This document shows, one piece after another, positions 1-19,080 of a stretch of DNA of 36,888 nt (positions are counted from its first letter, which is position 1; every line of letters begins with the position of its first letter). This DNA is from Chiloscyllium plagiosum (lineage: Eukaryota): contig NW_025213867.1 in the NCBI RefSeq assembly GCF_004010195.1, positions 1 through 36,888 of the forward strand. Direction: 5' to 3'. A model generated the notes under the pieces. It was not told where the DNA came from and did not search any database. It worked only from the letters and a program-made list of their open reading frames with translations. The translations under genes were made by a program, and so were the position numbers.

Positions 1-2985
1 GGAAGGTGATTGAGGTGTCAATGGGGGAGCACTTTGGGGCCAGCGACCTTAATTCTATTTGTTTTAAAATAGTGATGGAAAAGGATAGACCAGGTCGAAA
101 AGTTCAAGTTTAAATTGGAGAAAGGTCAATTCCGACGGTGTGAGGCAAGAGCTTTCACAAGCTGATTGGGCAAAGATATTTGCAAGTAAAGGGATGGCTG
201 GAAAATGGGAAGCCTTCAGAAATGAGATAACGAGGGTCCAGAGAAAATATATTCCTGTTTGGGTGAAAGGAAAGGCTGGTAGGTATAGGGAATGCTGGAT
301 GACTAAAGAAATTGACGTTTGGTTAAGAAACAGAAGGAAGCATCTGTCTGGTATCGACAGAATAAGTGAGTGAATCCTTAGAAAAGTATAGATGCAGTAG
401 GAGTATACTTAAGAGCGAAATCAGGAGTACAAAAAGTGGACATGAGATAGCTTTGGCAAATCGAGTTAAGGAGAAACTAAAGGATTTTTTAACACGTACA
501 TTAAGGACAAAAGGGTAACTCGGGAGCGAATAGAGCCCCTCAAAGATCAGCAAGGCGACCTTTTTCTGGAGCCGCAGGATATGAAGCCGAAATTAAATGA
601 GTATTTTGCATCAGTAATTACTGGGGAAAGGGACATGGAAGATATAGACTGTAGGGAAATAGATGGTGACATCTTGAAAAACGTCCATATTACAGAGAAT
701 GAAGGCTGGATGTCTTGAAACGCAGAGAAGTGGATACATCCACAGGACCTGATCTGGTGTACCCTAGAACTCTGTGCGAAGCTAGGGAAATGATTCCTGG
801 GCTTCATACTGAGATGTTTCTATCATCAATAGTCACAGGAGAGGTGCCGGAATATTCGAGGTTGGCTAATATGTTGCAACTCTTCAAGAACTCGATAGTT
901 AGGGGCACAGATAGGCGGTTTTGTGGGAACGAGAGAGACTCACGTTTGGTATGTTGCCTCCCAGGTGCAAGGGTACGTGATGTCTCTGATCGTGATCGTG
1001 TTTTCCGGGTCCTGGAGGGGGAGGGGGAGCAGCCCGAAGTCGTGGTCCATATTGGGACCAACGACATAGGTAGGAGGAGTGCCGAGGATGTTAGACAGGC
1101 TTTCAGGGAGCTAGGTTGGAAGCTCAGAGTTAGAACGAACAGAGTTGTTGTCTCTGGTTTGTTACCCGTGCCACGTGATAGAGATTCGAGGAATAGGGAG
1201 AGAGAACAGTTAAATGCGTGGCTACAGGGATGGTGCAGGAGGGAGGGATTCCGGTTTTGGGATAATTGGGGTTCTTTCTGGGGACGGTGGGACCCCTATA
1301 AACAGGATGGTCTACACCTGAAACTGAGGGGCACCAGTATCCTTGGCCTCAAAGATCAGCAAGGCGACCTTTTTCTGGAGCCGCAGGATATGAAGCCGAA
1401 ATTAAATGAGTATTTTGCATCAGTAATTACTGGGGAAAGGGACATGGAAGATATAGACTGTAGGGAAATAGATGGTGACATCTTGAAAAACGTCCATATT
1501 ACAGAGAATGAAGGCTGGATGTCTTGAAACGCAGAGAAGTGGATACATCCACAGGACCTGATCTGGTGTACCCTAGAACTCTGTGCGAAGCTACGGAAAT
1601 GATTTCTGGGCCTCTTACTGAGATGTTTCTATCATCAATAGTCACAGGAGTGCTCGAGGTTGGCTAACATGTTGCAACTCTTCAAGAAGATGGTAAGGAC
1701 AACTATAGACCAGTGAGCCTGACATCAGTGGTGGGCAAGTTGTTGGAGGGAATCCTGAGGGACAGGATGTGCATGTATTTGGAAAGGCAAGCACTGATTA
1801 GGGATAGCCAACGTGGCTTTATGCGTACGAAATCATGTCTCACAAACTTGATTGAGTTTTTGGAAGCAGTAACAAAGAGTGATAGATGTGATCATCAGTA
1901 AGGCGTATGACAAAGTGCCCCATGGGAGACTGGTGAGCAAGGTTAGATCTCATGGAATACAGGGAGAACTATCCATTTGGATCCAGAACTGACTCAAAGG
2001 TAGAAGACAGGGGATAATGGTGGAGGGTTGCTTTTCAGACTGGAGGCCTGTGACCAGTGGAGTGCCATAAGGATCGGTTCTGGGTCCTCTACTTTTTGCC
2101 ATTTACATAAATGATTTGGATGCGAGCATAAGAGGTACAGTTGGTAAGTTTGCAGATGACACCAAAATTGGAGGTATAGCGGACAGCAAAGAGGGTTACC
2201 TCAGATTACAACAGGATCTGGACCAGATGGGCCAATGGACTGAGAAGTGGCAGGTGGAGTTTAATTTAGATAAATGTGAGGTGCTGCATTTTGTAAAGGC
2301 AAATCCTGGAAGGACTTATACACTTAATGGTAAGGTCCTAGGGAGTGTTTCTGAACAAAGAGACCTTGGAGTGCAGGTTCATAGCTCCTTGAAAGTGGAG
2401 CTATAGGATAGTGAAGGCGGCGTTTGGTCTGCTTTCCCTTTTTAGTCAGAGTATTGAGTACAGGAGTTGGGAGGTCGTGTTGCGGCTGTACAGGACATTG
2501 ATTAGGCCACTGTTGGAATATTGCGTGCAATTCTGGTCTCCTACCTATCAGAAAAATGTTGTGAAACTTGAAAGGTTCAGAAAAGATTTACAAGGATGTT
2601 GCCAGGGTTGGAGGATTTGAGCTATTGGGGTGGCTGAACAGGCTGGGCTGTTTTCCCTGGAGCGTCAGAGGCTGAGGGGTGACCTTATAGTGAGGGACAT
2701 GGTTAGGGTAAATAGACAAAGTCTATAAACGAGACCTAAGAGGCATCTTTCTTAGAGGGTGTTACGTGTATGGAATGACCTGCCAGAGGAAATGGTGGAG
2801 GCTTGTACAATTGCAACATTTAAGAGGCATCTGGATCTGTTTATGAATAGGAACAGTCTGGAGGGATATGGGTCAGGTGCTGGCAGTTGGGACTAAATTG
2901 GGTTGGGTTATCTGGTTGGCATGGACGAGTTCGACTGAGGAGCTGTTTCTGTGCTGTACATCTCTATGCCTCTAGGACTATATGA
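1..2985 (+). mobile_element. Decayed CR1 LINE (ORF2 linker, reverse transcriptase, 3' tail) with internal duplication; lies in intron 2 of the cytokine gene
   Basis: Frameshifted peptides [46 protein letters not shown]1-type 3' end ...ctgtttctgtgctgtacatctctatg. Confidence 0.95.
891..1346 (+). mobile_element. Fragment of CR1 ORF1 SGNH/GDSL esterase domain inserted in ORF2 sequence
   Basis: Peptide SIVRGTDRRFCG...CCLPGARVRDV...VVHIGTNDIG...LNAWLQGWCRREGFRF...DGLHL carries the esterase block motifs. Confidence 0.88.
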
Positions 2986-2987
2986 CC

Positions 2988-5100
2988 TCACCCGTATTCA
3001 AGGATGTTCCAAAGATATCTGTTAAGGCCCCAGCTATTTCCTCTCTCGCTTCCCTCAGTAACCTGGGATAGATCCCATCCGTACCTGGGTACTTGTCCAT
3101 CTTAATGCATCTTAAAAAAACCCCAACACTTCCTCCTTATGCCGACTTGGCCTGGAGTAATCAAATAGCTATCCCTAACCTCACAATCGACCATGTCTGT
3201 CTCTTCTGCGAATACCAATGCAAAGTACTCATTAAACATCTCTGACTCCATGGATAACTTCCCTCCTTTGCCTGAAGTGGGCCAACCCTTTCTATAGTTA
3301 CCCTGTTTCTCTTTATGTACGAATAAAAGGTTTTGGGATTTTCCTTAACCCTGTTTACTCAAGATATTCCATGATCCCTTCTATCCCTCTTAACTCCTCG
3401 TTTCAGATTGGTCCGACTTCTCTGAAATACTTCCAAACCTTTGCCTATTTTCAGTTGCACAGACCCTACATTTTCCTTCCCAGCCAGTTGCACAATTTCA
3501 CCTGTCCTCCATGCTTCCCTAATCTTGCCATTTATATCCCTCATTTTCACGGGGACATGCCTATCCAGGACTCTAACCAAAGTCTCTTTTAAAGTCTCCC
3601 ACCTATCAAATGTGGAGTTACCTTCAAACAGCTGATCCCAATCCACATTCTCCAGCTCCTGCCGAATGTTTGCTATAGTTGGCCTTCCTTTACGGCCACT
3701 TTTGTCTTTGCCTACGAATATTTAAACCTTTTGGAATTGTACTTACTATTCCCAAAGTAATCCCCAACTGAAATTTCAACCACCTGGCTGAGCTCATTTA
3801 CCAACACCAGATCCAGTATGGCACTTTCCCGAGTTGTTCTATTTACATACTGGTCTGGAAACCCTCCTGGATGCTCCTCACAAATTTTGCTCCATCTAGA
3901 CCTCTAACACTAAATGTATCCAGTCAATGTTGGGAAAATTAAAATCGCCTATCACCACCAGCCTATTGCTCCGATATTTTTCCCTATTCTGTTTTCATAT
4001 TTGTATCTCTAGCTCACGCTTGCAGTCGGGAGGCCTGTGGTACAGTCCCAACATTGTTGCTGCACCCTTCCTTTTTCTGAACTCTGCCCATATTGCCTCA
4101 TTCTCAAATCCTCCACAGTGCCTTACTTCAACACAGCTGTGCTATTGTCTCTGAGCAGTAAGGCAGCTTTTCCACACTTTTTACTTCCCTCTCAGTCCCG
4201 ACGAAAGCATCTATATATGGGATATTTACGGCTAATCATGCCCTTCTCTCAACTAAGTCTCAGTAACAGCAATATTGTCATACTCGCAGGTAATAATCCA
4301 AGCTCTAAGTTCATCTGCCTTGCCTGCAACATTTCTCATAATTAAACAAAAGAACATCCGACCACCTGTTCTTTTTGTGTTCATCGTCTGCTCCCTGCCT
4401 ATTCTTCCCGCTAGTCATTATTTAGTTCCTTACAAGCTTTAGTTACAACTCCTTACTGTTCAGTAACCTCTTGATTTGGTTCCCATCTCCCTGCCACATT
4501 CGTTTTAACCCTCCCCATTCACCCCCCCCCCCTCCCCCCAGAGTTAGCAAAAGCACCTCAAGGATATTGGTTTCACTCTGGCCCAGTTGTAGACTGTCCA
4601 ATTGGTAATAGTCTCATCTTCCCAGAACCGGGCACAACGCCCCAAAAGTCTGAAACCCTCCCTCCTGCACCATCTCTCAAGCCACGTATTAAACCTGCAT
4701 ATTCTCACATTTCTACTCTGAAGTGCAATTGGTATTGGGAACAATCCTAAGAATATTACCTGTTTTTTCAATTGGATCCTAATTCCCTAAATTCTGCTTG
4801 TAGGACCTCACTCCTTTCTTTTTTTTAACCTTGGGGCGGGGAGTGCTGTAGAAGACTCTCAATAAAGTGACTGCTCGGTTCCTGTTTCTGACTTTCACCC
4901 ATACTAACTCTGTAGACAAATTCTCTTCGATATCCTCCCTCCCTGCAACTGTGTTGCTACCCCTGATTAGCAATGTTAAAAATTATACAAAACCCTGTTG
5001 TAGTCCAACAGGTTTATTTAAGCAATGTCACTCTCCCAACTCTTTCACCTCCGTGCCCATTCCGTTTGAAACATGAAACCCTGGAACATTAAGAAACCAT
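2988..5100 (-). mobile_element. Decayed CR1 LINE fragments (ORF1 esterase end, endonuclease, linker)
   Basis: Minus-strand peptides FNTWLERWCRREGFRLLG, STELVWVKVRN..AVTLL.VFY and DWDQLFEG...W; many stops. Confidence 0.88.
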
Positions 5101-5219
5101 TTTCGCTGAACAGTCAGTGAGGACCCTATTATCCCTGCCCACCCAGCAATCCCTCATCACTCTCACCCCCGTCCCCGATGCCAACGCAAAGGGCACTGCC
5201 CACTTGTGGTGATACTCAC

Positions 5220-5356
5220 GTAAGTGCTCAGCAGAGAGGAGGCTTTCTCCTGCAGGAGCAGCAATAGGTCCCGGGTCTGTCCGACTAAAATGGGCACAGG
5301 AATGGGTGCTCCCTGGGGGTGACCCAGCAACTGGATCAGGAGAAGACTCAGGATCC
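5220..5356 (-). CDS. CTF2: Coding exon 2 (137 nt, phase 1 to 0) of the cardiotrophin-2-like cytokine: (G)ILSLLLIQLLGHPQGAPIPVPILVGQTRDLLLLLQEKASSLLSTY
   Basis: Acceptor ccccttttcctctag|GG, donor TAC|gtgagt, no stop codon. Hydrophobic signal peptide ending near PQG|AP, then an amphipathic helix ending in LLxTY at a phase-0 intron, as in CT-2/CLCF1/LIF. Aligns without gaps to the mammalian CT-2 mature N-terminus as I recall it (API...GQ...L.L..Q...S.LL.TY). Confidence 0.82.
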
Positions 5357-5449
5357 CTAGAGGAAAAGGGGTGGGGGGGGGGGAGGAGTGGGTGGAGAGG
5401 GAAAGGGAAAAGATTCAGACTGGATTATACTCTGTGGCTCAGGGGCCCA

Positions 5450-6360
5450 AACCTCTCTTTTCCCATCCCTCTAACTTACACCTCATCCCTTTCTTTGTAA
5501 CTCCATCCAGCCACTACACCTCATCCCAATCTCTTTAATCCTCTCCAGGTCCGACATTGTTTCCCCAACTTCACCACCTCTGACCGCACTTATACCACTT
5601 CCCTATCTCTGTAACTCACTCCAGCCCCAGCCCTTCCTCCAGCACCTACATCACATCCCCAACTCTGTCACATCCTCCAGCCTGCACACCGTCTCCCTAT
5701 CACTGCAATCTCATCCAACCCCAAACATTCTTCTCATGTCAGTAACCTCCTCTATCCTATGCACCCTCTCCTTATCTCTATAGATTCCTCCAGCCATTAC
5801 ACTCCTCACTATCCCTTTAATCTTTTCCAACCCCTACACCCCTTCCTGTAGCTGTAATCGTCTCTAACCCCTGTACTCCTCTGTGTCTCTGTAACTTCCT
5901 CCAGCTCGTACACAATCATGATCTCTGTGACGTCCTCCAGGCCTAGACTCCTCCCTATCCCTGTAACTTTCTCTAGATTCAACACTCCCTCCCTACCATG
6001 ATAACCTTTTCAGCCCCTACACCTCCTCCCTTTCTCTGTAATCTCCTCCAGCACCTACAACCTCCAAATTTCTGTAACATCTTCCAGACCATACTCTCCA
6101 AATACCTGTCAATTTCTCCAGCCTCCTGCATCTCCCTGTCTCTGTAAAATCTTGCAGCCCCTGGATGTTTCCATATCTCTACAACCTACATCAGTCGCCA
6201 AGTCCGCTCCATTTCTCTGTAACTTCCTCCGCATCCAGCACTTACTCCTCATTTCATGTCAGTAATCTCTTTCAGGCCTTACTCCCCTCCAAATCTCAGA
6301 AATATGCTCCAGTTCCTAGAGGTTTTCTCTTTATCTGTAAACTCCTCCAACCACAACAAC
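5450..6360. repeat. Degenerate ~37-bp minisatellite (ccctatctctgtaacctcctccagcccctacacccct), probably derived from an L2-type LINE ORF2 C-terminus
   Basis: ctgtaa...ctccagc recurs at ~37-bp period. The unit translates as PYLCNLLQP, resembling the L2 'APPYLxxLL' motif. Confidence 0.75.
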
Positions 6361-6371
6361 ATTGCCATTGC

Positions 6372-6455
6372 AGGGTCAGTGTTGAGCGAGGGGGCACTGT
6401 TGGATGGTCAGTGCTGATAGAGTGCCACACTGTCAGTGGGTCAGCACTGGTGAAG
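6372..6455. repeat. 33-bp tandem units (gggtcagtgctgagggagtgccacactgtcaga), DeuSINE/SacSINE1-like core
   Basis: About three units; same unit as 13530-13720. Confidence 0.6.
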
Positions 6456-6479
6456 TGGGTGTGCATTTGTGTCGCCTTT

Positions 6480-8690
6480 TCCACTATTTTCATTCTGTTT
6501 TCCCTTTCATCTTTCCACATTGACAACTTCCCTTCCGTGACTGATTAATTTTTCTTTTTTTCATCTATTTTTGATGTCTTCCTTTCTGTTTCACTTCTTC
6601 ATTCCCTACTTTCTCATATCCTCCATTCCCCTTTTCTCTTTCCTTCTCTCCATCATTTCTTCCTTCTGTTATTTCTTCACTTCTTTCGCATGTCAGTCAT
6701 TTCATAATTTGTACCCTTTCTTTCTGACATCCTTACCTCCCTCATTCCCCTCTTCGTGCCAATCCCAAGTGACACCACTCTCTGTTCTCCACTCCATCCA
6801 TTCCCTTCCTCTCTCCATCCTTGCATTTTTCCTCCTTTTCCATCGTCCCACTTCCTCTATCCCTGTCTTCTCTCTCCCCCCTTCTCTCTCCGTCTTTCTC
6901 TCTCTCTCTTGCTTCGCCACTATCTCTGAGGAGAAAGTGAGGTCTGCAGATGCTGGAGATCAGAGCTGGAAATGTGTTGCTGGAAAAGCGCAGCAGGCCA
7001 GGCAGCATCCAGGGAACAGGAGCTCCTGAAGAGGGGCTTATGCCCGGGGCATTGATTTTCCTGTTCCCTGGATGCTGCCTGGCCTGCTGCGCTTTTCCAG
7101 CAACACATTTCCAGCTCGCCACTATCTCCCTCCCTCTGTCGTTTTCTCTCCCTGCCACACTTTCTAGTTCCCACTTCCTTTAGCTCTCTCTCTTGCTCCT
7201 CCTGTCTTTCTGTCATCTGTCTGTCTCTCTTTCTCTCCCTCCCTCCCTCCCTCTCTCCCCTGTCTCTCTCTCTCTCCTCCTATCTCTGCCTTCTCTCCCT
7301 TTCCATCTCTCTCTGTCTCTCCCTCTCTCCTCCCACTGTCCCTATCTTGCTCTATGTCTCTCCATCTCTCCAAAATGTCTCTCTCACTCTGTCTTCCTCT
7401 CTCTCCTTCACTCACTCTCTCTAACTCCTTCTGTTCCTTTCTCTCTGGCCCTTTTCCTTCTCTCTCTGCCCCTCCCCAACTCGCCCTCCCTTTCCTTCTC
7501 TCACTCGCTCTCCTTCCTCTCTCTCACCTTCATCTTCTCCTCTATCGCTCTCTTTGTCCCTCCCTCCATGACTCCCTCCCTCTATTCGGAGCTAAGGCAC
7601 AGAGCAGAAATACTCAGCACAAGGAGAGAGAACTGCAGAATCAAACAGGGGGAAGGTCGAATGGGAAGGAATGAGTGAAGAAATGAGCGAGGGAAGGATG
7701 GGGCAATTTAGAAGGGAGAGACAGAGAGCGAGAAAGAGAAAGAAAGAGAGGGAGGAAGAGGGAAATCAAGGAGAGGAGAGAAGGGGAGGGAAGAAAGAAG
7801 GGGCGTGAGAATGCAAGAGGAAGAGAGGAGGGAGAGAAGGAAGGTAAAGAGAAAGAAGTAAATTGAAGAACGACGNNNNNNNNNNNNNNNNNNNNNNNNN
7901 NNNNNNNNNNNNNNNNNNNNNNNNNNNNNNNNNNNNNNNNNNNNNNNNNNNNNNNNNNNNNNNNNNNNNNNNNNNNNNNNNNNNNNNNNNNNNNNNNNNN
8001 NNNNNNNNNNNNNNNNNNNNNNNNNNNNNNNNNNNNNNNNNNNNNNNNNNNNNNNNNNNNNNNNNNNNNNNNNNNNNNNNNNNNNNNNNNNNNNNNNNNN
8101 NNNNNNNNNNNNNNNNNNNNNNNNNNNNNNNNNNNNNNNNNNNNNNNNNNNNNNNNNNNNNNNNNNNNNNNNNNNNNNNNNNNNNNNNNNNNNNNNNNNN
8201 NNNNNNNNNNNNNNNNNNNNNNNNNNNNNNNNNNNNNNNNNNNNNNNNNNNNNNNNNNNNNNNNNNNNNNNNNNNNNNNNNNNNNNNNNNNNNNNNNNNN
8301 NNNNNNNNNNNNNNNNNNNNNNNNNNNNNNNAGGGTACAGAGAAACGTGGAGGGATGGAAAGGAAAGTGGAGAAAGAGAGTAAGGTGGAGAGATAGACAA
8401 CAGTGAAGAGAGAAAGCTTGGAGAGATAGACACAGTTCACATGAGAGCGGTTGTGTGCATGAAAGACTGAAAGAGGGAAAGAAGGAAACAGGAAGATAGA
8501 AAGAGGGAATGGAGTGATGATTCGAGAGAGGGATACTGATGGAGTGAGAGAGAGAGAGACAGACAGAGAAAGTTGGATGAAGAGAGAGGGTAGGAAGAAG
8601 AAAGAAATAGAGAGATGTAAATGGAAATAGAGGGAGGGAGGGGGAGAGGAAGAGAAGGAAAGTAGGGAGGAGGGTAATGTTGAGAGAATA
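6480..8690. repeat. CT-rich tract followed by GA-rich tract, containing the assembly gap 7876-8331
   Basis: Pyrimidine-rich 6480-7575, purine-rich 7650-8690; run of N. Confidence 0.9.
6927..7115. mobile_element. Short palindromic Penelope-pLTR-derived insertion with 13-bp TSD (tcgccactatctc)
   Basis: TSD at 6914-6926 and 7116-7128. Inverted arms ~6964-7021 and ~7059-7117. Same sequence family as the termini of the element at 27237-28555. Confidence 0.8.
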
Positions 8691-8700
8691 CTTGTCTTAC

Positions 8701-8716
8701 CTCGCAAATCCTGCAT
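8701..8716 (-). CDS. CTF2: Coding exon 1 of a cardiotrophin-2/neuropoietin-like (IL-6 family) cytokine; encodes MQDLR plus the first base of Gly (phase 1)
   Basis: Minus strand reads ctcaccATGCAGGATTTGCGAG|gtaaga: good Kozak context (A at -3), strong GT donor, TATA-like TATTTATA about 85 nt upstream of the ATG. Splices in frame to the exon at 5356-5220. A tiny phase-1 first exon is typical of LIF/OSM/CT/CLCF1 genes. The symbol is the best family match, not a proven ortholog. Confidence 0.75.
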
Positions 8717-8769
8717 GGTGAGCTGACTTTGGTGCCTGCACCTATGTTGAAAGTTTGAATGATTCTGAG

Positions 8770-8980
8770 TGTGGGTTTGGGTGACATCGAAACCCTCTAT
8801 AAATACCTCCCTGAAACGGAAAAGCTGGCTGATCACAAACTCCCCAATCCACCCCCACTGGGGTGATTGTGTCTGACAACACAGTCTGTGTGGATATTTA
8901 AAGAGATTGTCTCTCAACCTCTGTCTGGGATAGCCACATGTGAGAAAAGGGAACTCCCGTGAACACCTTTCTCGAATGGG
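8770..8980 (-). promoter_or_regulatory. Proximal promoter of the cytokine gene: TATA-like box (8798-8805), kappaB site (8949-8958), weak TT-N5-AA STAT-like site (8968-8976)
   Basis: Minus strand TATTTATA at suitable spacing from the ATG exon. GGGAGTTCCC (minus) fits the GGGRNNYYCC consensus. Unique, non-repeat sequence. Confidence 0.6.
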
Positions 8981-9149
8981 CACTTATTTCCGTTCATTAC
9001 TCACCTAGGCATTCCATCACAGGGATTACTCAGCGCATTCTTCACTATTACCATCACAGACTCCAAGTTCTTTAAAGAAATGCAACCAAACTGCGATGCA
9101 AACCAGCTCTTTCACAATCAGAGGCTGAACTCTGTGAGCGTGTGTGTGT

Positions 9150-9477: not shown

Positions 9478-11524
9478 TGAGTGTGCGTGCATATGAGTGT
9501 GGTGAGTGTGCGTGCGTATGAGTGTGGTGACTGTGCGTGTGAGAGAGGGAGAGTGTGAGAGAGAGAGAAAAACACACAGTGTTCATCAATGAAGCTTGAT
9601 TTGATGCTCACTCTTTCAGACGAACACACTCACGTGCATTCACACACGTATATACACACACTCTCACACTCTCTCACACAGACACACACATACACACACA
9701 CTCATACACATACTCTCTCGCTCACGTTTTCTGTCAGGGACTCTAACACAAACTACAGCGCATATACATTCACTTTCTCACATCCACACACTCAGTCTGT
9801 CATACATACTCTCTTCCTCTTCCCCTCCATCCCTCTATTTCCATTTACCTCACTCTATTTCTTTCTTCTTCCTACCCTCTCTCTTCATCCAACTTTCTCT
9901 GTCTGTCTGTCTCTCTCTCACTCCATCAGTATCCCTCTCTCGAATCATCACTCCATTCCCTCTTTCTATCTTCCTGTTTCCTTCTTTCCCTCTTTCAGTC
10001 CAAATATCTCTCCACCTTCCTACCTGCCTCCACCATCCACGCCATCTCTCCACTTTCCCCTCTGTCTCTCCCCCTTTGTCTCCATCTTTCTTTTTGTCTC
10101 CACCAACCTCTGTATTCTTCTACCTCTTTTCCTGGTTCCACCTATTCCTCTGTCCATCCACCTTCCTCCCTATCTTCCCACCTTGCGATCCTGGCGATCT
10201 CTCCACTGTCTCATGGGGCAGCATTTGCTGGTGAAAATTGCTGCGCTGTCTCCTTTTCCTTTGTCTCTGAGGGGAATGTCCTGGCTTTCCCAAGAGGAAA
10301 TTCTGGTCGGTGTGTAGGGATGCCCTCTCTGAGATTCGAAGCCATGTTTCCACTCTGACAGGTTTCCCCACATTCCCCACCATTCCCCCACCACTGCACT
10401 ACTGTCCAAACACTGTGTGGTTCAGTAATGTCAGTGGAAGCAAACTACAACGCTGTAAACTGAAACAGAGAGGTCCTGCCTCACACTGACACAATGTAAA
10501 CATCAGCGCAGTGTGAGGCAGCGTTAGCATGCCAACTGGGTCTTGGGAGAGAATGGGCAAGGAGTCAGGCAAGTAAGGTTCCAGCTGGGCTGTGGTACCA
10601 GTTCCGTGGAGTGGTCTAGGTAGTGTGCTAGCTCCATGGGGGAGTGTAGGGTGTCAGGAAATAGGGTGCCAGCTTATTGGGAGGGGAGAGAGAAGGTTGG
10701 ATACTTGAGTGATCAGGTGCCTAGTCGGTAGACGCCTACAAGTCATGGGTCTAGGCAGCCAGCTGGGTAACTGAGCCATATGGGTAGCGGCAGCAAGTGG
10801 AAAATGAGTGTGGCTTGACCAGTGTGGAAGAAGGAGGGCAAGAAATTGATGCGGTGGTTGGGGAAATGATGGTGGGGAGTGGGAGGATTGTAGGGGTGGC
10901 AGCGAGGCAAAGAGGGGTGATAGAAATGGCAGGGGACAGAGAACGGGAGGGTCGCACAGGGTCGAGAAGTTGACATCTTTCCTGGTCTTCCCTTCAAAGT
11001 GAGCTACAATGGGGATTCCTCAGGACTCCCACGTGTACAACCCCCACCTGAACTGGAATAATGACTGTTCAGTTAGTTATCGAGAAATCCAGGCTTTTCG
11101 CTGTCGGTCTGTCTCAATTGTCCCACCAATCACTCCAATCCACATGCCAAGCCTGCATCTTTCACTCTAATTCTCCATCATCAATGTTCTACCTCTCCGG
11201 CCATCTTTCCATTCATCTTGTCAACACATCCATCTTCCCATTAGTCCCTTTACCTGTCTATCCATCCTTCTGCCTTTCCGTCCCTCTCTTTGCCATTCTA
11301 ACCCTCCCTCTATCCTTCATTGTGCTAACTATTCTCACGACCACCTGTCTCCCCATAGGACTGTATGAATCCCCAAAATAATCCCACTGCCTTGCTCTCT
11401 CCCCATATCCCTGTATCGAACCCATACCCAAACCCATACAAGGGGAAAGTGTTTTGGAGATAGGTCCAAGTGAGGCTTTTGAGGGTGAACTCGAGAACTC
11501 TGAAAATGGATGTCACACCAAGTT

Positions 11525-17859: not shown

Positions 17860-18470
17860 ACCCCTTTCCCAAACCCGACTCCCTTCCCCAAGCCCTGCTC
17901 AACATTCAGTTTCCACTCACATTTGCAGAATACCTCCAGTCCGTGCACAAGCATGATTTTTTAACACAGCGACCTGCTTGCATGCCCACTTGTTTGTCCT
18001 CAGTATGCTATCACACTCCGGCGAATCACAGCACAAACTCTGTGGTTTGCAAATCACAGAATAATATCTCATCTTCGAACATGGCAGGATTAAAACCTTC
18101 TGGGCTCAATGCTGAGTTCAACACCTTCAAATTGTGGACCCATTCCATCCCTTTCTTTCAGCTTTGCTCGTTCCATTCTCTGCTACCCCTCTCAACCCTT
18201 CCCCAACAACCATTGTGACTGTCTGCTCTCTCCAGTTTGGCAGGACAACACACAGTTGTTCTATAATCCTTACAGTCCGATCACTTAATCTGAACTATCT
18301 ACACCCTTTCTTCCCCCAGCACTCCAACAACCCCCTCCCAATTAATGCATAAATGCTGCCCCTCCACCCTTCAATTCAGCGTTGATGAAAAGTTATGTAG
18401 ACTTGAAACGTGAGCTGGCTCTCACCTCCATGGATGCTGCCCCAGACCCACTGTTGTCTCCAGGATTTTA
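17860..18470 (+). mobile_element. Decayed Penelope-like element 3' end (GIY-YIG C-terminus and pLTR)
   Basis: LKPSGLNAEFN motif. Degenerate hammerhead-like core ttgatgaaaagt...acttgaaacgt at ~18382-18412. Confidence 0.65.
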
Positions 18471-18479
18471 AGTTGTAAG

Positions 18480-19080
18480 GACCCATTGGACAGACCCTAC
18501 GCCTCAAACCCCGCCTCCAATCGGTATGTCCCGCCCATTATTCATCATACCCCGCCCCCAGTCACAAGAAGCCGCCCATCACTCTCCAAACCCCACCTCT
18601 AAACACAATAGCCGGCCCACCACACCCCCCGCCCCCACCCAAACTTCTCGCCGTGCCCAGCACACCGGAAACACCGCCCCCCAACTCAAAACCGCGACCG
18701 TCACTCTAAACCCCGCCCACAACTACACGCTGCCAGTTTCTCCAAGCCCCGCCCATCATTGGCCGAATCTCCCAAGCACGGCCCCTTTGTTCCCCTCGCC
18801 CCAACCAATGAGGGTCCCGTCTCCTGATCCCCTACATTTCTCCCGCACAGTCCCTCCTAAATCCGGGTCACCGCAGTCGGAACCTGACGGAAGTCTTTTT
18901 AAAAAAAACAGCCCTCTCCCACAATCCCCCTCGGCTCCGCTGCCCCCCTGCACCTCCCCTTGAAACGCCGTCACGTCGCACCCGTGAGGATTGTCCAATC
19001 GCCGACGTTTTCGCCTGTTGCTGGGTCAAGATCGGTCAATCCGTCAGCATCTGGGGGCTTGCCCCATCCGCCTCACCTGG
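18480..19080. promoter_or_regulatory. CpG-rich, TATA-less housekeeping-type promoter (multiple GC boxes, CCAAT boxes, ETS site); probably drives a + strand gene divergent from the cytokine
   Basis: At least six CCGCCC boxes 18509-18755; CCAAT/ATTGG near 18518, 18758, 18805 and 18995; CGGAAGT at 18888-18894; the most CpG-dense unique stretch of the window; possible donor ccc|gtgagg at 18984. Confidence 0.7.

Follow-up and report, generated by a model that had tools for sequence, protein, structure and literature searches.

Does a single unplaced contig of the shark Chiloscyllium plagiosum carry the front end of a working cytokine gene and, if so, to which member of the IL-6 family does that gene belong? 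The stretch of DNA in question (36,888 nucleotides (nt), hereafter the window) is the entire contig C100462 of a 3.56-Gb genome assembled in 101,977 contigs. The analysis makes it probable that the window holds the promoter and exons 1 and 2 of a cardiotrophin-2 (CT-2)/neuropoietin-type cytokine gene, likely completed by an exon 3 (exon 3A) on another contig, the product being predicted as a secreted ligand of CNTFR-alpha, LIFR and gp130. The window contains a real gene fragment, which an earlier note made from this DNA correctly recognised; what follows from it is mostly ordinary annotation repair.

Two coding exons in the window

Both exons, and the introns beside them, lie on the minus strand. 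The coding part of exon 1 (8701..8716) is only 16 nt long and consists of five codons (MQDLR) plus one nucleotide, ending in phase 1; its ATG stands in the context CACC-ATG and a GT donor, GTAAGA, follows directly on its 3' side. Exon 2 (5220..5356, 137 nt) has a pyrimidine tract with AG on its 5' side and GTGAGT on its 3' side, and it encodes the hydrophobic region of a signal peptide and most of helix A. The two exons join in phase 1 without stops to give 51 residues, the last of which is a Tyr at phase 0. Intron 1 (5357..8700) contains simple repeats and measures 3344 nt as assembled, its true length being uncertain because of a 456-N gap (7876–8331) inside it. The part of intron 2 that is present (1..5219) is repeat-filled and cut by the contig end. 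No exon 3 was found within the window or to the left of position 1, where the contig ends at the window edge; since the window is the whole contig, exon 3 must be off it. Re-reading of the splice sites, together with the N-termini of carpet-shark RefSeq proteins, bears out what the earlier note had described, namely two minus-strand GT-AG exons that join in frame to 51 residues across a 3344-bp intron including the N gap, with a 16-nt phase-1 exon 1 and an exon 2 ending in Tyr at phase 0.

A loose ATG..GT pattern yields 12 candidate mini-exons upstream of exon 2, so exon 1 is not picked by sequence alone; it is the database proteins that pick it. All of the first 17 residues (17/17) are reproduced in five full-length RefSeq proteins (P0002, P0012, P0004, P0005 and P0017) from four other carpet sharks, and the entire 51-residue product is identical to these proteins at 41–47 of 51 positions. 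A Pfam search with exon 2 alone gave no match.

A probable third exon and the duplication history

Searching the genome with exon-2 DNA turned up a single close paralog (89% identity), here called B, which lies at C49:5.489 Mb. Paralog B has a phase-0 exon 3 of 154 residues, 7465 nt downstream of its exon 2 on C49, which matches the Pfam families PRF (plethodontid receptivity factor; E 3.8e-13) and CNTF (E 1.2e-11). A protein search of the genome (14 matches from 20 candidates) included two copies of exon 2 whose splice sites are intact and two copies of exon 3, and a query with exon 3B (five matches from 10 candidates) returned, besides B, one other intact exon 3 (A) and three distant relatives. 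Exon 3A (C49:2708662-2709126, minus strand) has a good acceptor and a stop and encodes a peptide identical to that of exon 3B at 120 of 154 positions; a 500-N scaffold gap lies 5.2 kb away on its upstream side. No exon 2 was found in the 140 kb around it, and exon 1 of paralog B was not found in the assembly. The earlier note had predicted a phase-0 third exon encoding helices B–D and starting with an LxxQGxPF-like motif. Such an exon is present, in two copies elsewhere in the genome, and its start, LTxMGLPF, comes close to the expected motif.

Because exons 2 and 3 of B are paired on C49, exon 2 of the window and exon 3A remain unpaired. As far as sequence can tell, the orphan exon 3A (C49:2.709 Mb) is therefore the likely partner of the window exons. 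The 51 residues of the window and the 154 of exon 3 add up to 205, which is the length of the full-length orthologs. Exon 2 of the window retains the ancestral LLSTY, at which B has NSY or SSY, and is therefore not a B allele. Moreover, the ratio of non-synonymous to synonymous substitution (dN/dS) is 0.19 between the exons 2 of the window and B (nine synonymous and five non-synonymous differences) and 0.20 between exons 3A and 3B, values that mark both exon 2 and exon 3 as being under purifying selection (dN/dS about 0.2). Only A-type and B-type exons 3 occur among the annotated proteins of three hemiscylliid species.

Several results weigh against this pairing. Comparison of the left end of the window with the contig of exon 3A gave only a 65% match, in a long interspersed nuclear element (LINE), between the intron-2 ends, and no unique sequence was found in common between the window and the 140 kb around A. 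In addition, exon 2 of the window differs from that of B at 14 of 135 nt, as against 90 of 462 for exon 3A and exon 3B (Fisher p 0.014; p 0.055 when this contrast is taken at synonymous sites only). Since exon 2 is closer to B than exon 3A is, either gene conversion of the front end or a third paralog is needed. According to the latter explanation, the window would belong to a third paralog of CT-2, likewise intact and younger sister to B, with its own exon 3 unassembled, and exon 3A would belong with separate exons 1 and 2 that are missing or lost. Exon 2 and its flanks are indeed 88% identical to B over 303 nt, as against 79% over 683 nt for exon 3A and its flank; the derived HPQ and TRDL are common to the window and B and absent from Stegostoma and Rhincodon; and the tree unites exon 3A with one of the Stegostoma/Rhincodon paralogs (90/89). 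Furthermore, all A-type RefSeq models are without exons 1 and 2 (151, 151 and 158 residues), and hence without signal peptide or helix A, the assembly is fragmented, and for B, too, no exon 1 was found in it. Nevertheless, a third paralog calls for two unseen pieces where the pairing with exon 3A calls for none, no third type of exon 3 appears in the genome or among the annotated hemiscylliid proteins, and the test on exon 3 does not reject a clade of A with B (p 0.106). The RefSeq model of B is likewise cut to 151 residues despite its assembled exon 2, so that truncation is a habit of the pipeline. On balance a third intact paralog is considered quite unlikely.

Two further features were noted around these exons. 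A 370-nt, 79% copy of the 3' untranslated region (UTR) of gene A (C49:2709570-2709939) stands about 450 nt upstream of exon 3A and is probably a relic of local tandem duplication, and remains of an endogenous retrovirus lie just downstream (C49:~2,696,500-2,704,800), with zinc knuckle, reverse transcriptase, RNase H, integrase and env domains in separate open frames. A second last exon in B was considered and rejected, as the match to A downstream of B is 3' UTR interrupted by repeats.

Two types of exon 3 are also seen in other carpet sharks. A-type and B-type exons 3 are both found in Hemiscyllium and in both Chiloscyllium species, and Stegostoma and Rhincodon also have two exon-3 types; in the clusters read, Heterodontus and two Scyliorhinus species have one type each. 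A further lineage, C, is represented in the C. plagiosum genome by six copies of exon 2 (C49:8.845, 8.871 and 8.941 Mb; C94267; C100451; C92861) and five copies of the promoter and exon 1 (C93691, C99449, C91136, C80870 and C49:6.551 Mb), on contigs or at sites apart from the exon-2 copies, both counts being lower bounds. Five of the exon-2 copies are in frame and identical to the window at 93–96 of 135 nt and to each other at 128–133, and five of the six share 1–17 kb of duplicated flank at 92–95%; most of the exon-2 copies sit within large segmental duplications. Lineage C was rejected as a third working gene: the acceptor is AA in 6/6 exons 2 and the donor GC in 5/5 exons 1, one copy carries a frameshift, another has its exon-2 donor changed to GG, and a profile search found no exon 3 in the 11–15 kb downstream of the four longest copies. 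Judged by these lesions, the copies are pseudogene fragments of a third CT-2 lineage. Were the weak donor read through, most of the exon-2 copies would end five codons later.

That this genome makes such fragments raises the question of whether the window is itself a young duplicate of the 5' end only, giving no full protein. Its intron 2 is repeat-filled and unlinked to any exon 3, and beside the promoter stands an inverted copy (191 nt, 97%) of the beginning of intron 1, which points to recent local rearrangement. Against this, the window keeps the AG, the GT, an open frame, a TATA box and a dN/dS of 0.19, unlike the AA and GC of lineage C, and an intact orphan exon 3 is available to it. A 5'-only duplicate therefore appears highly improbable, and a gene completed by exon 3A is taken as the working model in what follows.

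Affinity within the IL-6 family

Sequence comparison places the gene nearest to CT-2. Against a panel of 21 proteins, CT-2-named proteins make up the top six of 11 matches to the exon-2 peptide of the window, and exon 2, exon 3A and the full-length carpet-shark protein P0002 each find coelacanth CT-2 as best match (blastp, a one-way search). For P0002, the blastp scores are 133–153 bits for five bony-vertebrate CT-2 proteins and at most 117 for CT-1, 89 for CLCF1, 61 for CNTF and 58 for LIF/M17, the lowest in the panel. A search of 1.84 billion representatives returned 79 matches, the non-shark list being headed by coelacanth and rodent CT-2. Consistent with these matches, the leader in the window has a hydropathy of 2.63, within the range of six CT-2 proteins (2.2–3.6) and above that of six CT-1-type proteins (−0.6 to 1.5); as judged by hydropathy only, the window product thus differs from CT-1, whose hallmark is the absence of a signal peptide.

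Moreover, the genome contains separate orthologs of CLCF1 (C47:10581167-10581595), CNTF (C89810:4511-4861) and LIF/M17 (C25:22827398-22827832), all in strongly supported clades of a 68-row tree that is a quick version only. The CLCF1 clade (100) holds the C47 gene and the LIF/M17 clade (100) the C25 gene; neither holds the family of the window. The earlier note's description of a signal-peptide-bearing IL-6-family cytokine closest to CT-2 is upheld by the blastp panel, the leader and these separate orthologs, and the best matches that it had named as telling against the CT-2 label, namely LIF/M17, CLCF1 or CT-1, were not the ones found, CT-2 standing first in the panel.

The trees are less decisive. 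In a maximum-likelihood tree of 34 rows (LG+G4) the sharks group with CT-2 at 90/90. A mixture-model tree, built from 22 of these rows after 12 long-branch or redundant rows were dropped, leaves the sharks unresolved inside a CT-1+CT-2 clade (90/92). Approximately unbiased (AU) tests likewise do not reject placing the sharks with CT-1 (p 0.19), CLCF1 (p 0.075) or CNTF (p 0.10), and the trees, like the structure model described below, were built from paralogs and orthologs, the window's own peptide being in none of them. Membership of CT-2 is likely; strict orthology is not proven by the trees.

It is in this light that a working cytokine descended from the ancestor that CT-1 and CT-2 share, or a leader-keeping relative of CT-1 or CLCF1, has to be weighed against a strict CT-2 ortholog. 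The mixture model leaves the sharks, CT-2 and a long CT-1 branch unresolved, the AU tests are not significant, and the NCBI name CT-2 is unreliable. On the other hand, a leaderless gene of CT-1 type seems to exist separately in sharks (the Mustelus protein P0055 and a gene on C79660), the genome has its own CLCF1, CNTF and LIF/M17, and the best matches are CT-2. An origin other than strict CT-2 orthology accordingly seems improbable, and the assignment to CT-2 is retained.

Among the other family members noticed, the Mustelus protein falls with CT-1 at 81/87, subject to a long-branch warning. The C79660 gene (1622-2110 and 3691-3786) is divergent and sits on a long branch near this protein; its assembled upstream exon, whose last codon is a Tyr at phase 0, encodes no hydrophobic leader, and the gene is possibly shark CT-1. 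In Cetorhinus, the proteins P0030, P0117 and P0038 form a second, divergent CT-2-like lineage, in which site 3 reads FxxR and the site-1 Asp is changed, and which groups with coelacanth CT-2 (84/76); no lineage of this type was found in the C. plagiosum genome.

Gene structure and neighbourhood were also considered. Mammalian CT-2 has three exons, with phase 1 followed by phase 0 after the helix-A Tyr. In the shark, exons 1 and 2 are seen in the window and exons 2 and 3 of B on C49, no single contig having all three. The mammalian CTF neighbourhood comprises CTF1, BCL7C and FBXL19; seven family searches for these neighbours gave no match on C49 or the window contig, and the third-paralog candidates from the neighbour search are located either on C39 or on small unplaced contigs. 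No host gene was found in 110 open reading frames of the window or in 148 from flanking sequence, where only retroelement domains exceeded the cut-off, and an exon-pattern scan of 29 stretches gave 58 candidates which, judged by eye, include no obvious host gene. Contig C25, which holds the LIF/M17 gene, also carries BCL7, ORAI, CXXC, N-SET and AUTS2-family genes, and C28 carries a parallel set; the two are likely a paralogon.

Predicted product, promoter and known relatives

A structure model of P0002, based on a 30-row alignment, has a mean predicted confidence (pLDDT) of 87 and a pTM of 0.81, and consists of a long-chain four-helix bundle (residues 26–55, helix A; 89–116; 125–150; 171–202) that follows a low-confidence leader. 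Its best match in the PDB is CLCF1 bound to CNTFR-alpha (8d7h; E 1.5e-6, TM 0.83), followed by CNTF; no PDB match is labelled CT-1 or CT-2, and the best match is therefore no test of orthology. The receptor-binding residues of CLCF1 are W67, R170 and D174 for CNTFR-alpha and F151 and K154 for LIFR (PMC8780587), FxxK being the LIFR motif (PMC9601804). These align with shark W84, R191 and D195 (site 1) and F172 and K175 (site 3), residues that are encoded in exon 3, outside the window. The five residues (W/F/K/R/D) are present in 12/12 shark rows, including exon 3A, and in 27 of 30 rows overall. Taken together, the best matches, the hydrophobic leader, the modelled fold and the aligned receptor-site residues point to CT-2/neuropoietin.

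These features suggest how the gene may operate. The TATA promoter would drive a three-exon transcript for a protein of 205 residues, 51 from the window and 154 from exon 3, with the leader likely cleaved near residue 21, before Ala-Pro-Ile. In the resulting up-up-down-down bundle, site 1 (W84, R191, D195) would engage CNTFR-alpha, site 2 gp130 and site 3 (F172-x-x-K175) LIFR, leading to JAK/STAT3 signalling. The gene itself would be one of two intact duplicates (A and B) of carpet-shark origin. Homology underlies the predictions of secretion, of receptor use and of JAK/STAT3 output; for signalling through CNTFR-alpha, LIFR and gp130 the basis is the receptor-site residues together with work that, going by its title, Derouet reportedly published on the subject in 2004. 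The receptor chains CNTFR-alpha, gp130 and one of LIFR/OSMR type are all present in cartilaginous fish (PMC6238376).

Three points count against parts of this scheme. CT-1 and CLCF1 also carry all five receptor residues, which are thus no mark of CT-2 in particular. At the proposed cleavage site, Pro occupies position −3 (Stegostoma and Rhincodon have Ser there), and Pro at −3 is unfavourable for signal-peptide cleavage under the −3/−1 rule. Finally, neuropoietin activates STAT3 without phosphorylation of LIFR in adipocytes, according to one review (PMC3742226).

Upstream of exon 1, and likewise on the minus strand, lies a proximal promoter with a probable 5' UTR (8717..9122), which is 72–74% shared with five other copies in the genome. 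Within it, a TATA-like box (8798..8805) stands 82 nt upstream of the ATG, and a block of 22 nt (8813..8834), 8 nt further upstream, contains TTTCCGTTTC, whose TTTC-NN-TTTC motif we take to be IRF-like or similar to the interferon-stimulated response element (ISRE). Between the window and two divergent lineage-C copies, 265 of 406 promoter columns are invariant, and this block is the longest invariant run, a length reached in 200 of 20000 permutations. Its 20-nt core has exactly six exact occurrences genome-wide, as against none for the control, and the arrangement of TTTC-NN-TTTC with a TATA box is the sole instance in the window. A second block of 20 nt (8993..9012) is also invariant in the three divergent copies and contains TGAGTAAT, presumably AP-1-like. 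The IRF-like block beside the TATA box may be read as a lead for inducible expression, of which it is no evidence. If the lead were true, shark CT-2 would be inducible by interferon or infection, a role beyond that of the neurotrophic factor described in mammals. The full scenario that this opens combines a birth-and-death expansion of CT-2 in carpet sharks (two working paralogs, a converted front end and at least six dead fragments), a promoter with an IRF-type element fixed beside its TATA box in an interferon- or infection-inducible secreted cytokine, and a slow-evolving, leader-bearing CT-2 ancestral to the leaderless CT-1. Taken as a whole it is rather unlikely.

Other observations concern the same part of the contig. 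An element further upstream (10997-11316) is colinear and common to the window and contig C99449. A 191-nt inverted repeat (8465-8655 and 9810-10000; 97% complementary, spacing 1154 nt) encloses the promoter together with exon 1, and reflects either recent copying of the beginning of intron 1 or an artefact of assembly; a flip of the promoter and exon 1 by this repeat was ruled out, because the upstream element remains colinear with C99449. In intron 2, a 274-residue open frame on the plus strand (703-1524) has a GDSL esterase domain (E 1.7e-11) and is, we assume, most likely ORF1 of a LINE. The region at about 18400-19050 is CpG-rich and repeat-poor, with many GC boxes, and resembles a separate promoter, for which no coding exon was found.

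As regards annotation, the translations of exons 3A and 3B match in every residue the truncated 151-residue RefSeq models XP_043539642.1 and XP_043539645.1, which start at an internal Met, and the gene is therefore probably already listed, minus the part in the window. A search for a protein with the exact exon 2 of the window found none (three matches from 126 candidates, the best at 86%), which is a weak negative. An exon-3 query returned eight proteins from 105 candidates, whose clusters have 21 members from nine shark species, 16 of them already named cardiotrophin-2 or cardiotrophin-2-like in NCBI. The name as such was rejected as evidence, since the same label stands on IL-11-type shark proteins (P0079, P0148) and on leaderless CT-1-type proteins (P0033, P0055). 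Many shark and ray proteins so named (P0079, P0148-P0159) carry PF07400 and form a separate IL-11-type clade, on which the name CT-2 is a database naming error.

What the window adds is the N-terminus that was lacking, a history of duplication and a promoter element that can be tested. It would likely repair a truncated gene model, the 151-residue RefSeq protein gaining its signal peptide and helix A, and would turn an apparently leaderless protein into a secreted one. It also supports a statement of Redmond et al. directly at the sequence level; in this one genome CT-2, in two copies, occurs alongside CLCF1, CNTF, LIF/M17 and a candidate without a leader. In the literature, of which mostly papers outside subscription were covered, no description of a shark CT-2 was found, nor any of the carpet-shark duplication, the dead copies of exon 2 and of the promoter with exon 1, or the IRF-like block by the TATA box. 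Word searches of main texts found no shark passage in PMC13203501 and no mention of cardiotrophin in PMC7677710. Several sources available in part provide context: shark CNTF and LIF/OSM have been found, CLC and a CT-1/CT-2-like gene being only inferred in the jawed ancestor (PMC6238376); four fish IL-6-family members are listed, CT-2 not among them in the part available (PMC4929537); the loss of human CTF2, a pseudogene, is confirmed (PMC2134963); salamander PRF is derived from cardiotrophins in a family expanded by duplication (PMC8904931); and neuropoietin is summarised in PMC3742226 and PMC12580398. A CT-2 homolog has also been reported from lamprey (PMC13081863, likewise in part). The importance for the origin of the subfamily that the earlier note attached to the locus was overrated: the gain is modest, because CT-2 proteins are already named by NCBI in nine sharks and because of this lamprey homolog.

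Compared with known systems, the closest relatives are the carpet-shark full-length models named cardiotrophin-2-like (XP_072422710.1, XP_060709499.1, XP_059499095.1, XP_048382063.2 and XP_048476921.1), which resemble the window in 17/17 N-terminal residues; the A-type of Chiloscyllium has FKRK at site 3 instead of FERK. CT-2/neuropoietin of coelacanth, reptiles and mammals is about 40–42% identical to the shark proteins over about 200 residues and shares the hydrophobic leader and the site-1 and site-3 residues, and in coelacanth and rodent also Ala-Pro-Ile at the presumed mature start. Unlike these, the CT-2 gene of carpet sharks is duplicated, with dead amplified fragments, and has Met for Gln in the QGxPF motif. 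Cardiotrophin-1 (CTF1) belongs to the same clade (90/92) and is 28–39% identical to the shark proteins, but the proteins examined lack a hydrophobic leader and score lower (at most 117 bits as against 133–153). CLCF1 (8d7h) and CNTF (1cnt, 8d74) are the best PDB matches in structure and sequence and have the receptor-site residues in common with the shark proteins, and CLCF1 has three exons and a signal peptide (PMC8780587), as proposed for the shark gene; both differ in that the genome has their own orthologs on C47 and C89810. Plethodontid receptivity factor (PF06875), the best Pfam match of exon 3 (E 3.8e-13), is only 28% identical, and nothing in the shark data hints at a pheromone or sperm role.

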